Shown piece by piece: positions 4,291 through 64,000 of a DNA stretch of 64,000 nucleotides. The position numbers and the translations under genes were made by a program. How positions within the stretch are numbered: position 1 is the stretch's first letter; every line of letters starts with the position of its first letter. Under the pieces are notes generated by a model. The model had not been told where the DNA came from and did not search any database. It saw nothing but the letters and a program-made list of their open reading frames with translations. Source of the stretch: an uncultured Spirochaetota bacterium (lineage in GTDB: Bacteria > Spirochaetota > Brevinematia > Brevinematales > JAOACQ01); assembly GCA_963835575.1 (NCBI GenBank), contig CAWIGG010000002.1, positions 896,001 to 960,000 on the forward strand, given 5' to 3'.

Positions 4291-4881
4291 ATGGAAATAG
4301 AATTGGCTAGAAGCCTGATGAATCTATTCTTTCAGGCGCCGGCTGCTCATGGTATTCTTGTTTTTGAAGATAATGATTATCTTGGGGTTGTTTTAAAAAG
4401 AGATATTGAAATCGGCATTATGGAAGGCAGTTTCAATCTATTTGAAAATATAAATATGATCAAACTCAATCAGCTGACCCAGGTGGTTTTTAAGAATCAA
4501 ACATCAAAAAATCTGCAGGTTCCCGTAATAGACAAGGCCGGCAGCCTCATGCGGATTATTTCATTTGAGGAATTCCAGTGTCAGTTTTATTTTGATGAAT
4601 ATACCCCTCATTTTAATATACAAAATGTACTGGATGAACTTGAGCATCCTCTGGTCATAACCAACCATTTTAAAAAAACGATTTATGCCAATAAAAAAGC
4701 AATGGAAATGCTTGAATGCGATATTGAAGGGAAAAATTTCTCAGAAATATTAAAGCATTTTGAGATCAAAACAATAGGTACTTTCATGCTTATCGAGAAT
4801 TGTAAACATTCTTATAATCTTATCATCAGCCATTCAGAAACAAAACATTTTTCCTATTTTGTTTATTTGTTTTTGAAATAA
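4291..4881 (+). CDS. Hypothetical protein with degenerate CBS-like N-terminus and PAS-like C-terminus
   Basis: YLGVVLKRDI and VPVIDKAGSL are CBS-like; VLDELEHPLVITN..KTIYANKKAMEML..DIEGKNFSEIL is PAS-like. Confidence 0.5.
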   Translation: MEIELARSLMNLFFQAPAAHGILVFEDNDYLGVVLKRDIEIGIMEGSFNLFENINMIKLNQLTQVVFKNQTSKNLQVPVIDKAGSLMRIISFEEFQCQFYFDEYTPHFNIQNVLDELEHPLVITNHFKKTIYANKKAMEMLECDIEGKNFSEILKHFEIKTIGTFMLIENCKHSYNLIISHSETKHFSYFVYLFLK

Positions 4882-5320
4882 AGATCGGCCGACAAAGCGG
4901 TTTATTTGCAGAATGAAATCAAAAATTCTAGGTCCGGGCCGTGACATCACATCCTCATTTACAAATATTATTCTTGGGTTGATTTTCAATCTTTGAAATC
5001 TATTCTGCAGAGAATTTAATTCTTTTTTAAAACGGTCAGCAATGAATATTACATCCGGATTTAAACGGATCAGTTCTTCTTCATTTATGAGAGGATAGTG
5101 GACTTGTGAAACAATAGGGTTATCAAAACCAGCTTTTTCTAAAACATCGCCCAGGAATGTATATTTTGATGCGCTATAGAAAGGATATAAGGAAATTAAG
5201 ATAACAGCTTTCTTTTTATGAGCAGACTTTTTAATTGTTAATAATTTATAATTAATATTTTGAATTTTCTTTGTAATATCTGCATTTAAAAAATTCCCTA
5301 AAAAAATTATATTACTAATT
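4834..5320 (-). pseudogene. C-terminal half of a BtuF-like (cobalamin/Fe-siderophore) ABC substrate-binding protein, separated by IS5
   Basis: Contains TFLGDVLEKAGFDN, YPLINEEELIRLNPDVIF and MSRPGPRI. The first ~19 residues of ORF 4834-5376 are IS-derived. Confidence 0.85.
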
Positions 5321-6616
5321 GAGACCTTTGCACGGTAAATTGATAAAAAGGAGTGTATAATTTCAATATATGCCATAATATACTGTTAGGGGAGAGGTTA
5401 ATATGGCGATAAAAACAAAGCCTGACGGTTGGGCAGATTATGAGATCAATTCCCGAAAGCAGAAAGGCATCACATTTTTAGACCAAGTATTAATACTGAT
5501 CGACTGGACAAAAATCGAGAAGATAATCCGTAAGAAATACAAGAAGTACTTTAATGCGGTAGGGAGCCCTGCTTATCCGAGTCTTGTGATGTTTAAAGTT
5601 CTACTTTTACAGACATGGTATGATCTCTCAGACCCTGTGACAGAAGAATATCTGCTCAACTGGATACCAGCGTCACGCTTTGTAGGCTTATCGCTTGCAA
5701 GTGATGTGCCTGATCACAGTACAATTTGCAGGTTTCGAAATGAATTGAAGGAATTGGGAGTTTACGAAAAGCTCTTTAACGAAATCAATCGCCAGTTAGA
5801 GGAACAAGAGTTACTAATTAAAAAGGGTGCGATTGTAGACGCTACAGTGATAGAGTCGGCAAGACGACCGCGAAAGGTAGTGGAAACGGAAAGTATTCCT
5901 CTAGATCGCAAAGAGGAAGAAAAAGCAGAAGCTTCCAATCCAAATATAACTTACTCTGATGACACAGACGCGAAATGGCTGGTCAAGGGGAAAAAAGTTG
6001 TTTATGGTTATAAGTTGCATATGGCGGTAGACGATCAGAACGGATTTATTCTTGGAGGTCATGTAACAAGCGCGAATATTTCAGACATGAACGAAATAAA
6101 ACAGGTTGTAGAAGAAATTGGATTAAAGGAAAAATCATCAGTAGCAGCAGATAAAGGATATGCAAGCCAGGAAAATCGGGACATGCTTAAAGAAAAAAAG
6201 ATGAAAAGCAGGATTATGAGAAAAGCGGCTCGAGGCTGGGCTTTGACAGAACGAGAGAAGATATTCAATCGTTTAATCAGCGGGTTTCGCTATATTGTAG
6301 AACAGACAACCGGCATACTCAAACAACACTACGGTTTTAAGAGAATGCGTTATCTGGGATGCGAGAAAGGAGAAATGGAGTTTTATTTAAAAGCAATGGC
6401 ATTAAATTTAAAAAAAGCGGCAAGAATATGTTTTGAGGTATAGGGTGAACTGCGCCCAAAAGCCCTTTTTCAGCGGGATAAAGCTGAAAAACACCTGGAA
6501 ATCCTTAATGTTTCGGGTTAACGGTGATAGAAATCATCAAATTCTATGCTAAATCTGAATTTAAATTTTTTATCCGGGACGGATAGCAGGGGATTAGTCA
6601 ATTATGCAAAGGTCTT
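5321..6616 (+). mobile_element. Complete IS5-family insertion sequence, 1296 bp, 5-bp TSD TAATT
   Basis: Left end GAGACCTTTGCA (5321-5332); right end TGCAAAGGTCTT (6605-6616), 11/12 inverted match. Direct repeat TAATT at 5316-5320 and 6617-6621. Confidence 0.93.
5403..6443 (+). CDS. IS5-family DDE transposase
   Basis: PAYPSLVMFKVLLLQTWYDLSD, PDHSTICRFR, VDATVI, YGYKLH, ADKGY and RYIVE; the catalytic triad appears intact. Confidence 0.95.
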   Translation: MAIKTKPDGWADYEINSRKQKGITFLDQVLILIDWTKIEKIIRKKYKKYFNAVGSPAYPSLVMFKVLLLQTWYDLSDPVTEEYLLNWIPASRFVGLSLASDVPDHSTICRFRNELKELGVYEKLFNEINRQLEEQELLIKKGAIVDATVIESARRPRKVVETESIPLDRKEEEKAEASNPNITYSDDTDAKWLVKGKKVVYGYKLHMAVDDQNGFILGGHVTSANISDMNEIKQVVEEIGLKEKSSVAADKGYASQENRDMLKEKKMKSRIMRKAARGWALTEREKIFNRLISGFRYIVEQTTGILKQHYGFKRMRYLGCEKGEMEFYLKAMALNLKKAARICFEV

Positions 6617-6995
6617 TAATTATATCTGTCACATTATGTTCTTTGAGTGTAATGACTTTTATACCGAGAGATTCCAACCGCTCAATTTGATCTTTAGAAT
6701 TACCTGAATAGGATGCTATAACCAGATCAGGTTTCAAAGACACAATTTTTTCTATATTAATACTCCAGATATCTCCTATTTTAGGTAAAAGTAAAGCATC
6801 TGATGGATAGCTGCAAGCAGTTGTGTCAGCTATTAAGCGGTCACCTTTTCCAATAAAATACAGCATCTCAGTCACATTCGGGGCTATACTGATAATCCTG
6901 TTATTTTCCGCATAAGTAAATGAAAAAAAGAATATAAATATAAGAAAATATTTCATGCTTTTTAAAATTATTCTTTTTCTACGTTTATTGTTCAT
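6617..6995 (-). pseudogene. N-terminal half of the BtuF-like substrate-binding protein, interrupted by IS5
   Basis: Signal peptide (likely start MKYFLIF at 6956), RIISIAPNVTEMLYFIG, YP..A..LPKIG, NIEKIVSLKPDLVI. Joins the 4834-5320 fragment in frame once the IS and one TSD copy are removed. Confidence 0.88.
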
Positions 6996-7061
6996 AATTA
7001 TTATTATATTTTTTATTTTGAACTTTGTATAGAAAGAATAGCTTTATTTTATAATTAGATA

Positions 7062-7129
7062 TAAATAGTGAAACCCTCCCCGGGGGTTGGGGAGGGTTTC
7101 TGAAAAAAATGTATTTTAAGGGGGCTTTG
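7062..7129 (-). ncRNA. Candidate sigma-54-dependent small RNA with C-rich motifs
   Basis: Starts about 12 nt downstream of a consensus -24/-12 element. Contains GCCCCCUU and a perfect 12-bp stem with an AACCCCC loop (7070-7100). No ORF. Confidence 0.5.
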
Positions 7130-7140
7130 TTTTATAATGG

Positions 7141-7155
7141 GCAATTAATGTGCCA
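7141..7155 (-). promoter_or_regulatory. Sigma-54 (RpoN) promoter
   Basis: Minus strand TGGCAC-ATTAA-TTGC is an exact match to TGGCAC-N5-TTGC. Confidence 0.75.
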
Positions 7156-7228
7156 TTTTCTCAAAATGATTAGATAATCATATGCATTATATATAAATAA
7201 AATATAATTCAATTTTTATTATGATAAA

Positions 7229-7274
7229 AATGCACAGTTCATAATGCACAATCATATACTGTGTGATGTGCATT
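7229..7274. promoter_or_regulatory. Candidate enhancer (bEBP upstream activating sequence)
   Basis: AATGCACA occurs twice (7229, 7243), with the inverted copy TGTGCATT at 7267-7274. It lies 100-145 bp upstream of the predicted sigma-54 start, across an AT-rich spacer. Confidence 0.45.
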
Positions 7275-7278
7275 GATT

Positions 7279-7305
7279 TAAAGTAAGCGCAATATAAGTC
7301 GATAT
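7279..7305 (+). promoter_or_regulatory. Sigma-28 (FliA/SigD)-type promoter for the flgI unit
   Basis: TAAA-N15-GTCGATAT, 17 bp before the ATG at 7323. Confidence 0.65.
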
Positions 7306-7322
7306 TTTAACAAGAGGTTTAA

Positions 7323-8060
7323 ATGACAAGAATTATTATAATATTAATTCTTTTATGTTGTTCAGTTATTAATCATGCTGACGAAATACAATTCATATTA
7401 AAAGATATTGTTTATATAAAAACAAATAAAATATCCTTTAACGATTTGTTGGGAAATGATTTAGGACTAAGTTCAGAATTTCAGATCATATCAAATCAAT
7501 ATTTCTCAAATTATGAAATATCACGCTTATTAAAGCAGCAATATATCAAAGAAGTAATTTTAATTGGAAAAGGTGTTCAAGTAGAATGGATAAATCAATT
7601 TTCAAGCTTGAACAATATTAAAAATTATTTATTAAATACTTATCCGGGTATAAATATTCAAAAAGTTGATTTTTCAGATATAAGTTTTCCTGAAGAATTT
7701 AAAATTCAAAATTTAAAAAGCGAATATGAAAACAATTATATTAAAATACAGGCTGAATATTTATATTTTATTGGGAATAATGGAATTACAACCAATATAA
7801 AATTTGAATTAAAATATTATGGAAGCGATATAAATATATATCAAAAAAGTATTTCTCAATTCAATAATTCTTATGATTATATTTATCTTGAACATATTGA
7901 TAGAGGTATGGCGGATCTCTCATATAAAAAAGGCGATATTTTCATTACTATGAAAGTAAAGATAATGAGAAAGCTTGAGGATAATTACTATCTTGTCGAA
8001 AATAATAAAAGCGGAAAAACATTCAAGGTGAAATTGAAAGAGAAAACAGAGGAATTATAA
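7323..8060 (+). CDS. Exported hypothetical protein, possibly a divergent FlgA-like P-ring chaperone
   Basis: Signal peptide; overlaps the flgI start (TAATG); C-terminal Y.KGDI.ITMKVK...VENNKSGKTF weakly recalls the FlgA C-terminus. Confidence 0.45.
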   Translation: MTRIIIILILLCCSVINHADEIQFILKDIVYIKTNKISFNDLLGNDLGLSSEFQIISNQYFSNYEISRLLKQQYIKEVILIGKGVQVEWINQFSSLNNIKNYLLNTYPGINIQKVDFSDISFPEEFKIQNLKSEYENNYIKIQAEYLYFIGNNGITTNIKFELKYYGSDINIYQKSISQFNNSYDYIYLEHIDRGMADLSYKKGDIFITMKVKIMRKLEDNYYLVENNKSGKTFKVKLKEKTEEL

Positions 8061-9076
8061 TGAATAAAATAAAAACGTTTCTTATTTTTTTATTTTTATT
8101 TTTTATCACACAATTATTTTATGCCACAGCGGTGGATTTAAGAAATATTCTTAATATTGAGGGTTTCCAGGAAAATCCTCTTCTCGGTTATGGTGTTGTT
8201 GTTGGTTTAAAAGGAACAGGGGATAGCGACAGCGGTACTCAGACCAAAGAAATTATATCAAGAATAGCAAATAATTTTGGTTTTAAAATTAATGCGGAAA
8301 AAATTAAACCCAAAAATTCGGCTGTTGTACTGGTTAGCGCACTTATAACGCCATTCTCTCAACCTGGATCCAAGATTGATGTTAAGGTTTCTTCCATCTA
8401 TGATGCAAAATCTCTGGAAGGGGGAGAGCTTATTATTACTCCTTTAATTGCAGGAGATAATGAGATCTATGCTATTGCTCAGGGCAGCATTATGACTGAG
8501 AGAGCCTTAAGAGGCGTTATCGGGAATATTTCACAGGGCGCAATCATTCAAAAGCAGATTGAAAATAATATTGTGGATTCCAATAATAATATAACTTTCA
8601 TAGTCATGGAATCTTTAGGCTATAATGCTATTAATAAAGCAGTGGATGCGATCCGTCAAAAATATCCAGATGGGGTACAGGAAGTTTCATACAACAGGAT
8701 AAAAGTAAAGGTTCCTCAAGAAGAGGAAATTTATAAATTCATTGATAATATATATAAAATAAATGTTGATATTGAAGAAGAGCCGAGTGTTCTGGTGGAT
8801 TCTAAAAACGGAATTCTTATTTCAGGAGGCAATGTTCTTCTTTCCGAAGCAGCAATTTCCTACAACGGCATAAAATTAGAAATAGGCGGAGAAAAGAGCA
8901 AATCAGGTGAGAACCAGAAAAATGAAGACAATGTTAAATTATTAAAATCAACTTCAACAGTCCAGGATTTGGTCAACAGTCTCAATCAAACAGGGTTTTC
9001 AGGAAGTGATATTGTAAAAATACTGCAGCTACTGTATAAAAACGGCAATTTAAAAGCCCGTCTTATAGTACAATAA
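8060..9076 (+). CDS. flgI: Flagellar P-ring protein FlgI
   Basis: ENPLLGYGVVVGLKGTGDS, KNSAVVLVSA, IDVKVSSIYDAKSLEGGELIITPL, GNLKARL. Confidence 0.92.
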   Translation: MNKIKTFLIFLFLFFITQLFYATAVDLRNILNIEGFQENPLLGYGVVVGLKGTGDSDSGTQTKEIISRIANNFGFKINAEKIKPKNSAVVLVSALITPFSQPGSKIDVKVSSIYDAKSLEGGELIITPLIAGDNEIYAIAQGSIMTERALRGVIGNISQGAIIQKQIENNIVDSNNNITFIVMESLGYNAINKAVDAIRQKYPDGVQEVSYNRIKVKVPQEEEIYKFIDNIYKINVDIEEEPSVLVDSKNGILISGGNVLLSEAAISYNGIKLEIGGEKSKSGENQKNEDNVKLLKSTSTVQDLVNSLNQTGFSGSDIVKILQLLYKNGNLKARLIVQ

Positions 9077-53450: not shown

Positions 53451-53542
53451 ATGAAAAAATAAATTAAAAAAAAGCTTGCATTATTTAAAATATTAGTCAT
53501 AATAATAGTAGTTAAAAAATTACTACGAAAGAGGAGGGGAAA

Positions 53543-62315: not shown

Positions 62316-64000
62316 ATGATAAAATTGATATTCCGTATTGTGATTATTCTAATACTGCCAGTTTTATTCTATCCGCAAAGCGTAAAATCAAAAAATAATA
62401 CACTTATCGCTAACAGGCTTCCGGACGGAAATTATGTGCTCGAAAACAATAAAATAAAGATTATTATTGCCCCAAAGTTTGGCGGAAGGATCATTTCCTT
62501 AATGAGTAAGGATAATCAGGAAGAAGTCCTGCAGTCTTTTAATGTCAGCAATACTTCCGCGGGAGGGGCATTATATGATATTTTCGGCCGCCAGGACTGG
62601 CCGGGAACGGCAAATAATAATTACAATGTTAAAAATGTCTCTCTCACCAAAAATGAGGACATATTGTCTTTTGAAATGAACTATTCACTGGGCGACAGCC
62701 TGAAAGAAAAAAACGGCCTCATCATTAATAAAAAAATATACCTGGATGATTTTTCTTCCGCTGTCCATACAACGATTGAAATTCAGAATAATTCTTCAAC
62801 ATCTATTTCATTTCAATATAAAAATGCTTCAAAAATTGCCCTTGGAGCCGCTGAAGAAGGGGTAAAAATAATTTGGGTCCCTCTTGAAAAGGATATAGCT
62901 GAAATTGGTTTTTCGCCGATGAGCGGTTCGCATGGCGGCCGTATGTATCCGACCGGCGGTTTTATCGGACTTACCGCAAAAGACACAAAAACAGCCGCGA
63001 TCTGGGTTTTCGACCCTCAATTGATTGATTCATTTGATACTTTTCACAGTAAAGATGCGGCCTCGCTGGAATTGTCATTCCAGAATATCAGCCTGGAACC
63101 GAAAAAATCAGTTATTTATGAAATGGATATTGTTTTAATGAGCGATATGAAAAATATATCCGGAGCTGATTTAAAAAACAAAGTGATCGGCGGTCTGGAT
63201 TATCAAATCAAAAATAACAGGATTTTATTGGATGGTTCGCTTTATACATATTCAAAAGAAGCTCTATCCAATTTAAAATTAGTTGTCAGTATTTATGATA
63301 TGCTGGGTGGATTGATTCAAACAGTCAAAGAAGAAACAATTGAAAATATCATTCCTGACAATCCTTATAAATACAGCGGCGTTATTGACAGTATCGGAAA
63401 ACTCAAAGCCCCGGTATGTAAAGCGGTGATTAAATTGATTGATCCGCAGGGAGTGGAAATATTTTACTCTGAAAAAAAAATAAAAATCGGCGATTTAGTC
63501 CCGGATTTTAAAAATCCTGTGACTGTGAATTTCATGTGGGTGCTCAATCAGCCTCTTTATCCAAAACCTGAAGACTGTATAAAAAACCTGGGAAATTATA
63601 ATCAGATATATTCAAACATATTCGCAATATATGAAAAGCATCCCCTGGTAAAATCGGATATTGCTGTCAGCGGAGCGCTTCTTTATCAAATGATACAGTT
63701 CTATCCTGATCTTATTGAAAAATTGAAGTATTTAATCGGAACACGCAAAAACTTGAATTTAATGATTACCGGCTTCAGCCATCCTTTATTCCCTTTTATA
63801 TCATCAAATTCCATATCCATGCAGATAAAGCTGGATAAGGAATTGAAATCACTTCTTTTCGGCGTGAAACCCGACGGGATCTATTTTCCAGAACTGGCTT
63901 ATAAAGACGGTGTTTTTGACATACTATTGAAAAACGAAATAACCTGGGGATATTTCAGCGACGCTTCGATTAAAGACTATTATAAAAATATGACCGATAT
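62316..64000 (+). CDS. Exported protein with N-terminal beta-supersandwich and GH57-like domain, runs off the window end
   Basis: Not in the ORF track. Translated start MIKLIFRIVIILILPVLFYPQ...YVLENNKIKIIIAPKFGGRIISL. In the same frame near the end: NFMWVLNQPLY, AVSGALLYQ, TGFSHPLFP, FGVKPDGIYFPELAY. TAGGGGG RBS. Confidence 0.78.
   Translation, partial: MIKLIFRIVIILILPVLFYPQSVKSKNNTLIANRLPDGNYVLENNKIKIIIAPKFGGRIISLMSKDNQEEVLQSFNVSNTSAGGALYDIFGRQDWPGTANNNYNVKNVSLTKNEDILSFEMNYSLGDSLKEKNGLIINKKIYLDDFSSAVHTTIEIQNNSSTSISFQYKNASKIALGAAEEGVKIIWVPLEKDIAEIGFSPMSGSHGGRMYPTGGFIGLTAKDTKTAAIWVFDPQLIDSFDTFHSKDAASLELSFQNISLEPKKSVIYEMDIVLMSDMKNISGADLKNKVIGGLDYQIKNNRILLDGSLYTYSKEALSNLKLVVSIYDMLGGLIQTVKEETIENIIPDNPYKYSGVIDSIGKLKAPVCKAVIKLIDPQGVEIFYSEKKIKIGDLVPDFKNPVTVNFMWVLNQPLYPKPEDCIKNLGNYNQIYSNIFAIYEKHPLVKSDIAVSGALLYQMIQFYPDLIEKLKYLIGTRKNLNLMITGFSHPLFPFISSNSISMQIKLDKELKSLLFGVKPDGIYFPELAYKDGVFDILLKNEITWGYFSDASIKDYYKNMTD

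Follow-up and report, generated by a model that had tools for sequence, protein, structure and literature searches.

The RsaE/RoxS RNAs of Firmicutes carry C-rich motifs. The Qrr RNAs of Vibrio, which need Hfq, are embedded in sigma-54 circuitry, and GlmY and CrcZ are under sigma-54 control as well. In Helicobacter pylori, RepG's C-rich terminator loop is described as pairing with a G-repeat located in the leader of tlpB (PMC8295292), and in Campylobacter jejuni, a bacterium without Hfq, the C-rich loop of CJnc190 is reported to pair with the ptmG ribosome-binding site (RBS), which is G-rich (PMC8687705). The 6C RNA of actinobacteria, organisms that are also devoid of Hfq, is described as binding several G-rich RBSs through its C-rich loops without a chaperone (PMC6486639). 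For the myxobacterial pxr RNA, transcription seems to be driven by a sigma-54 promoter (PMC5568312).

We analyzed a putative small RNA gene of an uncultured spirochete of the order Brevinematales that is located in a 64,000-nt stretch of DNA (hereinafter, the window). Direct reading of the minus strand reveals, at 7155-7141, the exact sigma-54-type -24/-12 promoter motif TGGCAC-N5-TTGC that had been noticed in the first-pass annotation of this DNA, with ATTAA as the spacer; from the position of this motif, the transcription start is predicted at about 7129 (7128-7130); the motif is correctly spaced from the predicted RNA, as in a sigma-54-dependent stand-alone small RNA. The 4.39-Mb genome contains 7 exact copies of the motif, compared to about 1 expected, and the motif is kept in relatives. 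In 23/23 genomes of five families (f1-f5), the -24/-12 motif precedes a C-run that lies 12-18 nt past TTGC in 21 of the 23 loci and 26 nt past it in the other two, placing it right at the predicted 5' end or close to it. The window genome also encodes the proteins that such a promoter was anticipated to employ, namely, RpoN and six strong enhancer-binding proteins.

The predicted RNA is about 65-68 nt long (7129-7062, minus strand, with both ends approximate), and its sequence, as quoted in the first-pass annotation, holds on direct reading, with no AUG and no ORF. The 5' part of the RNA (7128-7109, with GCCCCCUUAAA at 7125-7115) is an invariant C-rich segment that is predicted to be single-stranded (hereinafter, module B, or the seed). 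It is followed by a terminator-like hairpin with the perfect 12-bp stem reported previously (7100-7070) and the C-rich loop AACCCCC (7088-7082). The two C-runs proposed to be exposed are indeed unpaired in the predicted fold; exposed, conserved C-runs are a feature of base-pairing RNAs of the RepG/CJnc190/6C mode. The hairpin (-24.4 kcal/mol; z -5.9; 0/200 shuffled sequences equally stable) is the only terminator-like site within 6900-7400, and the U-tract 3' of the stem is weak in the window genome (ACUAUUUA) and stronger in relatives. No second copy of the hairpin is present in the genome, and accordingly, a repeat or REP element was rejected as an explanation. A G-quadruplex role was dropped as well: it is the template strand that has the G-runs, and these are not conserved in families f2, f3 and f5.

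Comparison of the loci shows that the segment GCCCCCUUAA and the loop ACCCCC are invariant while 7 of the 12 stem pairs covary, with changes on both sides of the stem. The seed and the loop are identical across the 17 aligned rows; the loop ACCCCC is found in 16/16 loci of f1 and f4, and the module B segment in 21/23 loci. Altogether, 97.9% of the alignment cells within the stem are paired, compared with only 40-68% in slid controls, and the covariation score was reached by 0/500 shuffles, figures that are not to be taken as probabilities given that the structure was set from the same sequences and the rows are related; within f1 alone, 4/12 stem pairs covary. Thus, both the conservation of the loop cytosines and the promoter-plus-hairpin element with a covarying stem, the search for which the first-pass annotation had suggested, were found in relatives. 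Because the seed and the loop stay constant against a variable stem, their sequences are under selection beyond termination.

The element is conserved, at one copy per genome, across five families of Brevinematales. The promoter motif combined with CCCCC was detected in 23 of the 43 genomes of the class (a reversed control matched twice in all): the window genome (G000), 11/11 in f1, 1/1 in f2, 2/2 in f3, 4/4 in f4 and 4/4 in f5, with 0/12 in f6 and 0/8 in f7. A DNA search of 101 genomes identified the element in all 11 same-family relatives, and the matching public contigs are labelled Brevinematales, Brevinematia or Spirochaetota. A model built from f1 and f4 (R1) retrieves module B in f2 and f5 with E-values of 2e-5 to 8e-4, again one copy per genome, and yields weak matches (E 0.002-0.04) in 5/12 f6 genomes. 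Missing sigma-54 does not account for the gap in f6 and f7 because rpoN is present in 43/43 genomes of the class. In f6, where the genomes are reduced and have a single activator, the element was probably lost just once and therefore, the link between the element and flagella is weak; flgI is found in 0/12 f6 genomes and in 8/8 f7 genomes.

Beyond the class, 33 of 358 genomes of the phylum match a loose pattern of promoter and C-run, and when the matched text was read by eye, neither seed was seen among the matches listed for these 33 genomes. Metagenomes contain at least three further copies, among 120 loci listed. No copy was found among the 154 viral matches listed; the strict pattern gave 34 viral loci, none with the RNA body. 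Two observations from these searches concern other sequences. In three genomes of another spirochete family (G243:C1:40337, G129:C1:285826 and G071:C1:311986), a sigma-54 motif precedes ATCCCTCCCCC, which differs from both seeds; these loci perhaps represent a separate C-rich sigma-54 transcript. The seed-plus-loop pattern also matches a conserved stretch common to contigs of Dongia and related alphaproteobacteria (L059, L060, L062, L070, L073, L076 and L081), but the 130 bases shown there contain neither a matching hairpin nor a sigma-54 motif.

The organization of the RNA differs among the families. In f1 and f4, the 5' segment GCCCCCUUAAA(A)UAYAU, that is, module B, is followed by a variable spacer and the hairpin with the loop ACCCCC. 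In f2 and f5, the promoter is followed first by module A, which consists of ACACCCCCCAAUA and two hairpins, a small one and one of CCUCCUC/GAGGAGG, and then by module B and a terminator without the C-loop. The f3 RNAs lack module B; there, module A is the only module, and a U-tract comes after it. Three families have a second C-rich module. Module shuffling is clear across the RNA family, the combinations being module A by itself, both modules, and module B with the C-loop. In 21/23 RNAs, two C5-6 motifs are present at a distance of about 30-75 nt, and their arrangement is of two kinds.

Upstream of the promoter, at 7229-7274, where a repeated and inverted motif had been pointed out, is a cluster of TGCA repeats (7272, 7248 and 7234; minus strand) that includes TGCAT-N8-GTGCA at 7248-7231 and could be an enhancer. 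The repeats are conserved across the loci, with 2-6 copies at positions -150 to -60 in 23/23. Judging by sequence, the cluster fits a conserved upstream activator site located about 80-150 bp away, and is a putative binding site for an enhancer-binding protein. Among the 44 intergenic sigma-54-like sites of the window genome, the small RNA promoter alone is preceded by two or more TGCA repeats, which suggests an activator with this RNA as its main output in this organism. In a second genome with the same seed (G014), three or more repeats precede 5/15 sigma-54-like sites compared with 13/1813 background windows. The sigma-54 promoters with such repeats in G014 include those of three alpha-amylase genes (L124:9072(-), L184:18964(+) and L201:10082(-); two identified by Pfam scan and the third by the same N-terminal sequence pattern), which hints at an activator that responds to a carbon source. 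In G014, four TGCA repeats are also found at a sigma-54 promoter that heads the region L231:14420-16000; this region contains a GTG-start ORF, shows no Pfam or Rfam match and could be another non-coding transcript. Between the repeats and the promoter lies the AT-rich spacer noted in the first-pass annotation (7160..7228, minus strand), in which sequence comparison reveals a conserved TTTTATT-like tract; our guess is that a DNA-bending protein binds this spacer.

No activator gene is adjacent to the predicted RNA. Four enhancer-binding proteins are common to G000 and G014. One of them, a candidate regulator of the small RNA promoter, is a receiver-less sigma-54 activator of 346 aa (G000 C2:798365-799405; L245:3866-4906) that is 62-89% identical in 22/22 f1-f5 relatives, has relatives with 50-55% identity in f7 and none in f6. 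The RBS of this gene in G000 could itself pair with the seed (11 bp with one bulge), and that in G014 pairs poorly. Genes that have a sigma-54 motif in both G000 and G014 include lpxC, amt, hsp20 and two sigma factor genes. One of the latter, a sigma-70-family gene (G000 C4:684947-685774; L576-L591), has the motif in G000, G014 and 16/16 orthologs examined, and might be part of a cascade from sigma-54 to an alternative sigma factor by analogy with the RpoN-RpoS cascade described in Borrelia; it has a GGGGG RBS only in the genus of the window genome.

The neighborhood of the unit includes, on the plus strand, the divergent promoter of a flagellar operon, TAAA-N15-GTCGATAT (7279..7305), which is sigma-28-like; most related loci, inspected by eye, likewise have a -10 box of the CGATA type. 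The small RNA had been described as back-to-back with a sigma-28 promoter of flgI. The divergent sigma-28-like box is there, but the first gene after it encodes an unnamed 245-aa protein (7323-8060, plus strand) without a Pfam or NCBIfam match, and flgI comes second (8060-9076, plus strand). The unit is back-to-back with the flgI-preceding ORF in 18/23 genomes; in G010 and in all four f4 genomes, it is found at other loci, with the promoter and the repeats intact. Downstream, outside the RNA, lies a btuF-like gene (4834-6995, minus strand; 5' part at 6594..6995), which is split by an IS5-like element at about 5316-6625 (transposase, 5403-6443) that is present in three near-identical copies in the genome.

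Given the promoter motif, the repeats, the invariant seed and loop, the covarying stem and the changing neighbors, we find it very probable, on sequence evidence, that the 7129-7062 unit is a real sigma-54 small RNA gene. The first-pass annotation envisaged an unannotated trans-acting regulator. A stand-alone, non-coding sigma-54-type unit with its own 3' hairpin, its own enhancer-like repeats and no dependence on its neighbors is what we find, and it is the proposed targets that are not supported. The three G-run RBSs named as targets, those of bactofilin, a GH57-like gene and rplU, exist in the window, but in G014, which has the same seed, the orthologs of rplU, bactofilin and the gene at 62316 use GGAG(G). 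Genome-wide, GGGGG is found in the RBS region of 142/3768 called genes of the window genome.

A comparison of 1335 ortholog pairs between G000 and G014 (2.40 of 2.43 Mb of G014 covered; 112 of 1447 pairs dropped for want of a usable start or leader) detected no excess of shared seed complementarity: 4 pairs were in the top 5% in both genomes versus 3.3 expected, and 11 in the top 10% versus 13.4 expected. The same holds for pairs with a GGGGG RBS in both genomes (2 versus 1.9 expected), and an incomplete first ortholog set had given 3 versus 2.5. With that incomplete set, a scan of GGGG sites genome-wide, on both strands and including coding regions, found no strong orthologous pair, the best one (-19.5/-17.2) being inside a coding region. 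Across the whole order, an extended-complement pattern, which does not cover the four-A form of the seed, showed no excess over control.

The best single lead, borderline against the controls, comes from an HD-domain gene (C2:1407895-1409451), the leader of which contains the best non-self complement of the seed in G000 (21/22 nt), just upstream of the RBS. A TATT..GGGG site, a motif that was defined after the HD gene leaders had been seen, is located at -28 to -35 in 4/4 orthologs of the genus, all of which also have at least two G4 runs within 130 nt, a feature shared by 117/3768 genes; in three of the four, the G-run is followed by an out-of-frame start codon, the frame of which overlaps the main start. 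The best HD leader match (-25.9 kcal/mol) was equalled or beaten by 5/25 flank-shuffled seeds, and for the three other orthologs, 1/30 shuffles did equally well. The gene was found in only 11/35 genomes of the order, the leaders of 22 homologs from f2, f3 and f5 lack the site, and a metagenome search for relatives of this gene confirmed none.

At the level of gene classes, a 70-member cluster of GGDEF, HD-GYP and sensor genes ranks first of 18 paralog clusters by seed-complementary leaders (p 0.0016 before correction; 12/70 in the top 5%), and the matching G014 set of 24 genes leans the same way (p 0.029). Shuffled-flank seeds give similar p-values, although none of them equals the top-5% count of the true seed (12 versus 3-11), and the enrichment is largely reproduced with any CCCCC seed; hence the cluster signal reflects the use of G-runs. 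GGGG is found in 21/70 cluster leaders versus 474/3697, and AGGAG in 5/70 versus 1055/3697. Whatever the cause, genes of this cluster avoid AGGAG/GGAGG and favor G-run RBSs, which may fit targeting or simply reflect weak RBSs. On this showing, cyclic-di-GMP signalling genes would be the best target class so far.

Several individual candidates were rejected: the core HD-GYP gene C2:611500 (G4 run in only 3/20 leaders), an rpoS-like gene (G5 in 4/16, all from one genus), a CBM11 lipoprotein gene and a 7TM-HD-GYP gene, both of which failed across genomes, and the HD-GYP gene C4:525065, with mixed evidence (G4 runs in 4/5 leaders, weak energies). The fliF RBS is very G-rich in 6/6 genomes but offers only about 6 bp. 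Separately, a small hairpin, GUAGU...ACUAC, is located just 5' of the fliE RBS (about 53505-53535; L606-L610) in 6/6 genomes from four families and is possibly a conserved cis element.

We lean, somewhat, towards the reading that the small RNA pairs with several G-rich leaders. Under this scenario, sigma-54 together with an enhancer-binding protein bound at the TGCA repeats would switch the RNA on, and the exposed C-runs would pair with G-rich ribosome-binding regions and repress translation of several, largely lineage-specific mRNAs; strong G-C pairing would make the RNA independent of Hfq. Against this reading, a long invariant 5' segment that has no long complement conserved among mRNAs is not as anticipated for an RNA that pairs with one target, and the f3 RNAs lack module B. 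Hfq (PF17209) was not found in the window genome, which is 94% complete, with a profile that finds the rings in 5/14 controls; a candidate Jag_N match was detected. Alternatively, the RNA might not pair with mRNAs but rather act as a sigma-54-driven decoy, the two C-rich single-stranded motifs titrating an RNA-binding protein, like GlmY, which has been termed a decoy in the literature, and CrcZ. A segment that is invariant yet has no conserved complement among mRNAs fits a protein footprint, the two C5-6 motifs in two arrangements are compatible with titration, and the repeats upstream of the G014 amylase genes hint at carbon control. This reading is nonetheless unlikely: there is no candidate protein, with Hfq apparently missing and CsrA present in a cell where the sole GGA of the RNA sits in the stem, which also led us to reject a CsrB/RsmZ-type CsrA decoy; the f3 RNAs have a single exposed C-run; and in the published accounts, the C-rich loops of RepG, CJnc190 and 6C act by pairing.

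The invariance of the seed across four families could also suggest one conserved partner that our target tests, relying on crude gene calls and two genomes compared in full, would overlook, for example, a gene shorter than 45 codons, some other small RNA, a pairing site distant from the start codon or a gene within the remaining 30 kb of G014. We rate such a partner as distinctly improbable because the genome-wide scan described above revealed no strong orthologous pair. It is highly improbable that the unit is only a 5' leader or attenuator of the btuF-like gene or a terminator with an orphan promoter, the refuting case named in the first-pass annotation. The btuF-like genes follow the unit in G000 and G005, and the weak U-tract in G000 might allow some read-through, but the ORF lists show that the next gene is convergent in 14/23 genomes and varies in the other 9, and the unit changes locus intact, so that a general role as a btuF leader is excluded. 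Moreover, the btuF-like gene has its own sigma-70-like box past the hairpin (7031-7003), no cobalamin riboswitch or other Rfam family matches at threshold, and invariance of the loop and the 5' segment would not be maintained in a plain terminator.

Pairing with several G-rich leaders thus stays the preferred reading, and it can be extended, quite tentatively and with more doubt than attaches to the decoy, into a broader scheme. An Hfq-independent, two-seed RNA expressed from a single-purpose sigma-54 enhancer would read the G-run RBSs that cyclic-di-GMP signalling genes use instead of AGGAG and would reset the signalling set in one step, with the two C-rich modules retained, lost or shifted to the terminator loop depending on the family, and with the sigma-54 network tied to the flagellar state.

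A search of the locus against Rfam 15 (4227 models, riboswitches included) gave 15 weak matches, all below the gathering threshold, and a search of 16 of the 23 loci gave no match. A literature search, the scope of which stopped short of subscription journals and supplements, found nothing on small or non-coding RNAs of Brevinematales, Brevinematia or Thermospira, and none of the matches listed for spirochete sigma-54 small RNAs dealt with Brevinematales; a supplementary motif list of a comparative genomic study could hold this RNA. If expressed, the RNA would represent a well-defined gene family, from a little-studied order of spirochetes, that is missing from Rfam. With the promoter, enhancer-like repeats, seed and structure all mapped, reporter tests would be straightforward.

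Compared by features rather than by sequence, the predicted RNA resembles RepG and CJnc190 in being a small RNA with a C-rich hairpin loop, to which it adds a longer invariant 5' C-rich segment, a sigma-54 motif and enhancer-like repeats, its targets being predicted ones. With 6C, it shares two exposed C-runs; unlike 6C and RsaE/RoxS, it has one hairpin rather than several, the main C-run as a 5' tail, putative sigma-54 control and no Rfam match. The likeness to Pxr consists in an RNA with its own sigma-54 promoter and enhancer site, but Pxr is described as having three stem-loops and lying beside the gene of the regulator Nla19, whereas the Brevinematales RNA has no adjacent activator gene. 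The Qrr type is set apart by its need for Hfq, which was not found in G000. The predicted RNA would work like RepG, CJnc190 or 6C and be wired like Pxr or Qrr, while belonging to none of these families by the comparisons made here: it is a new RNA family of a known kind, the sigma-54 small RNAs, rather than a new kind of system.
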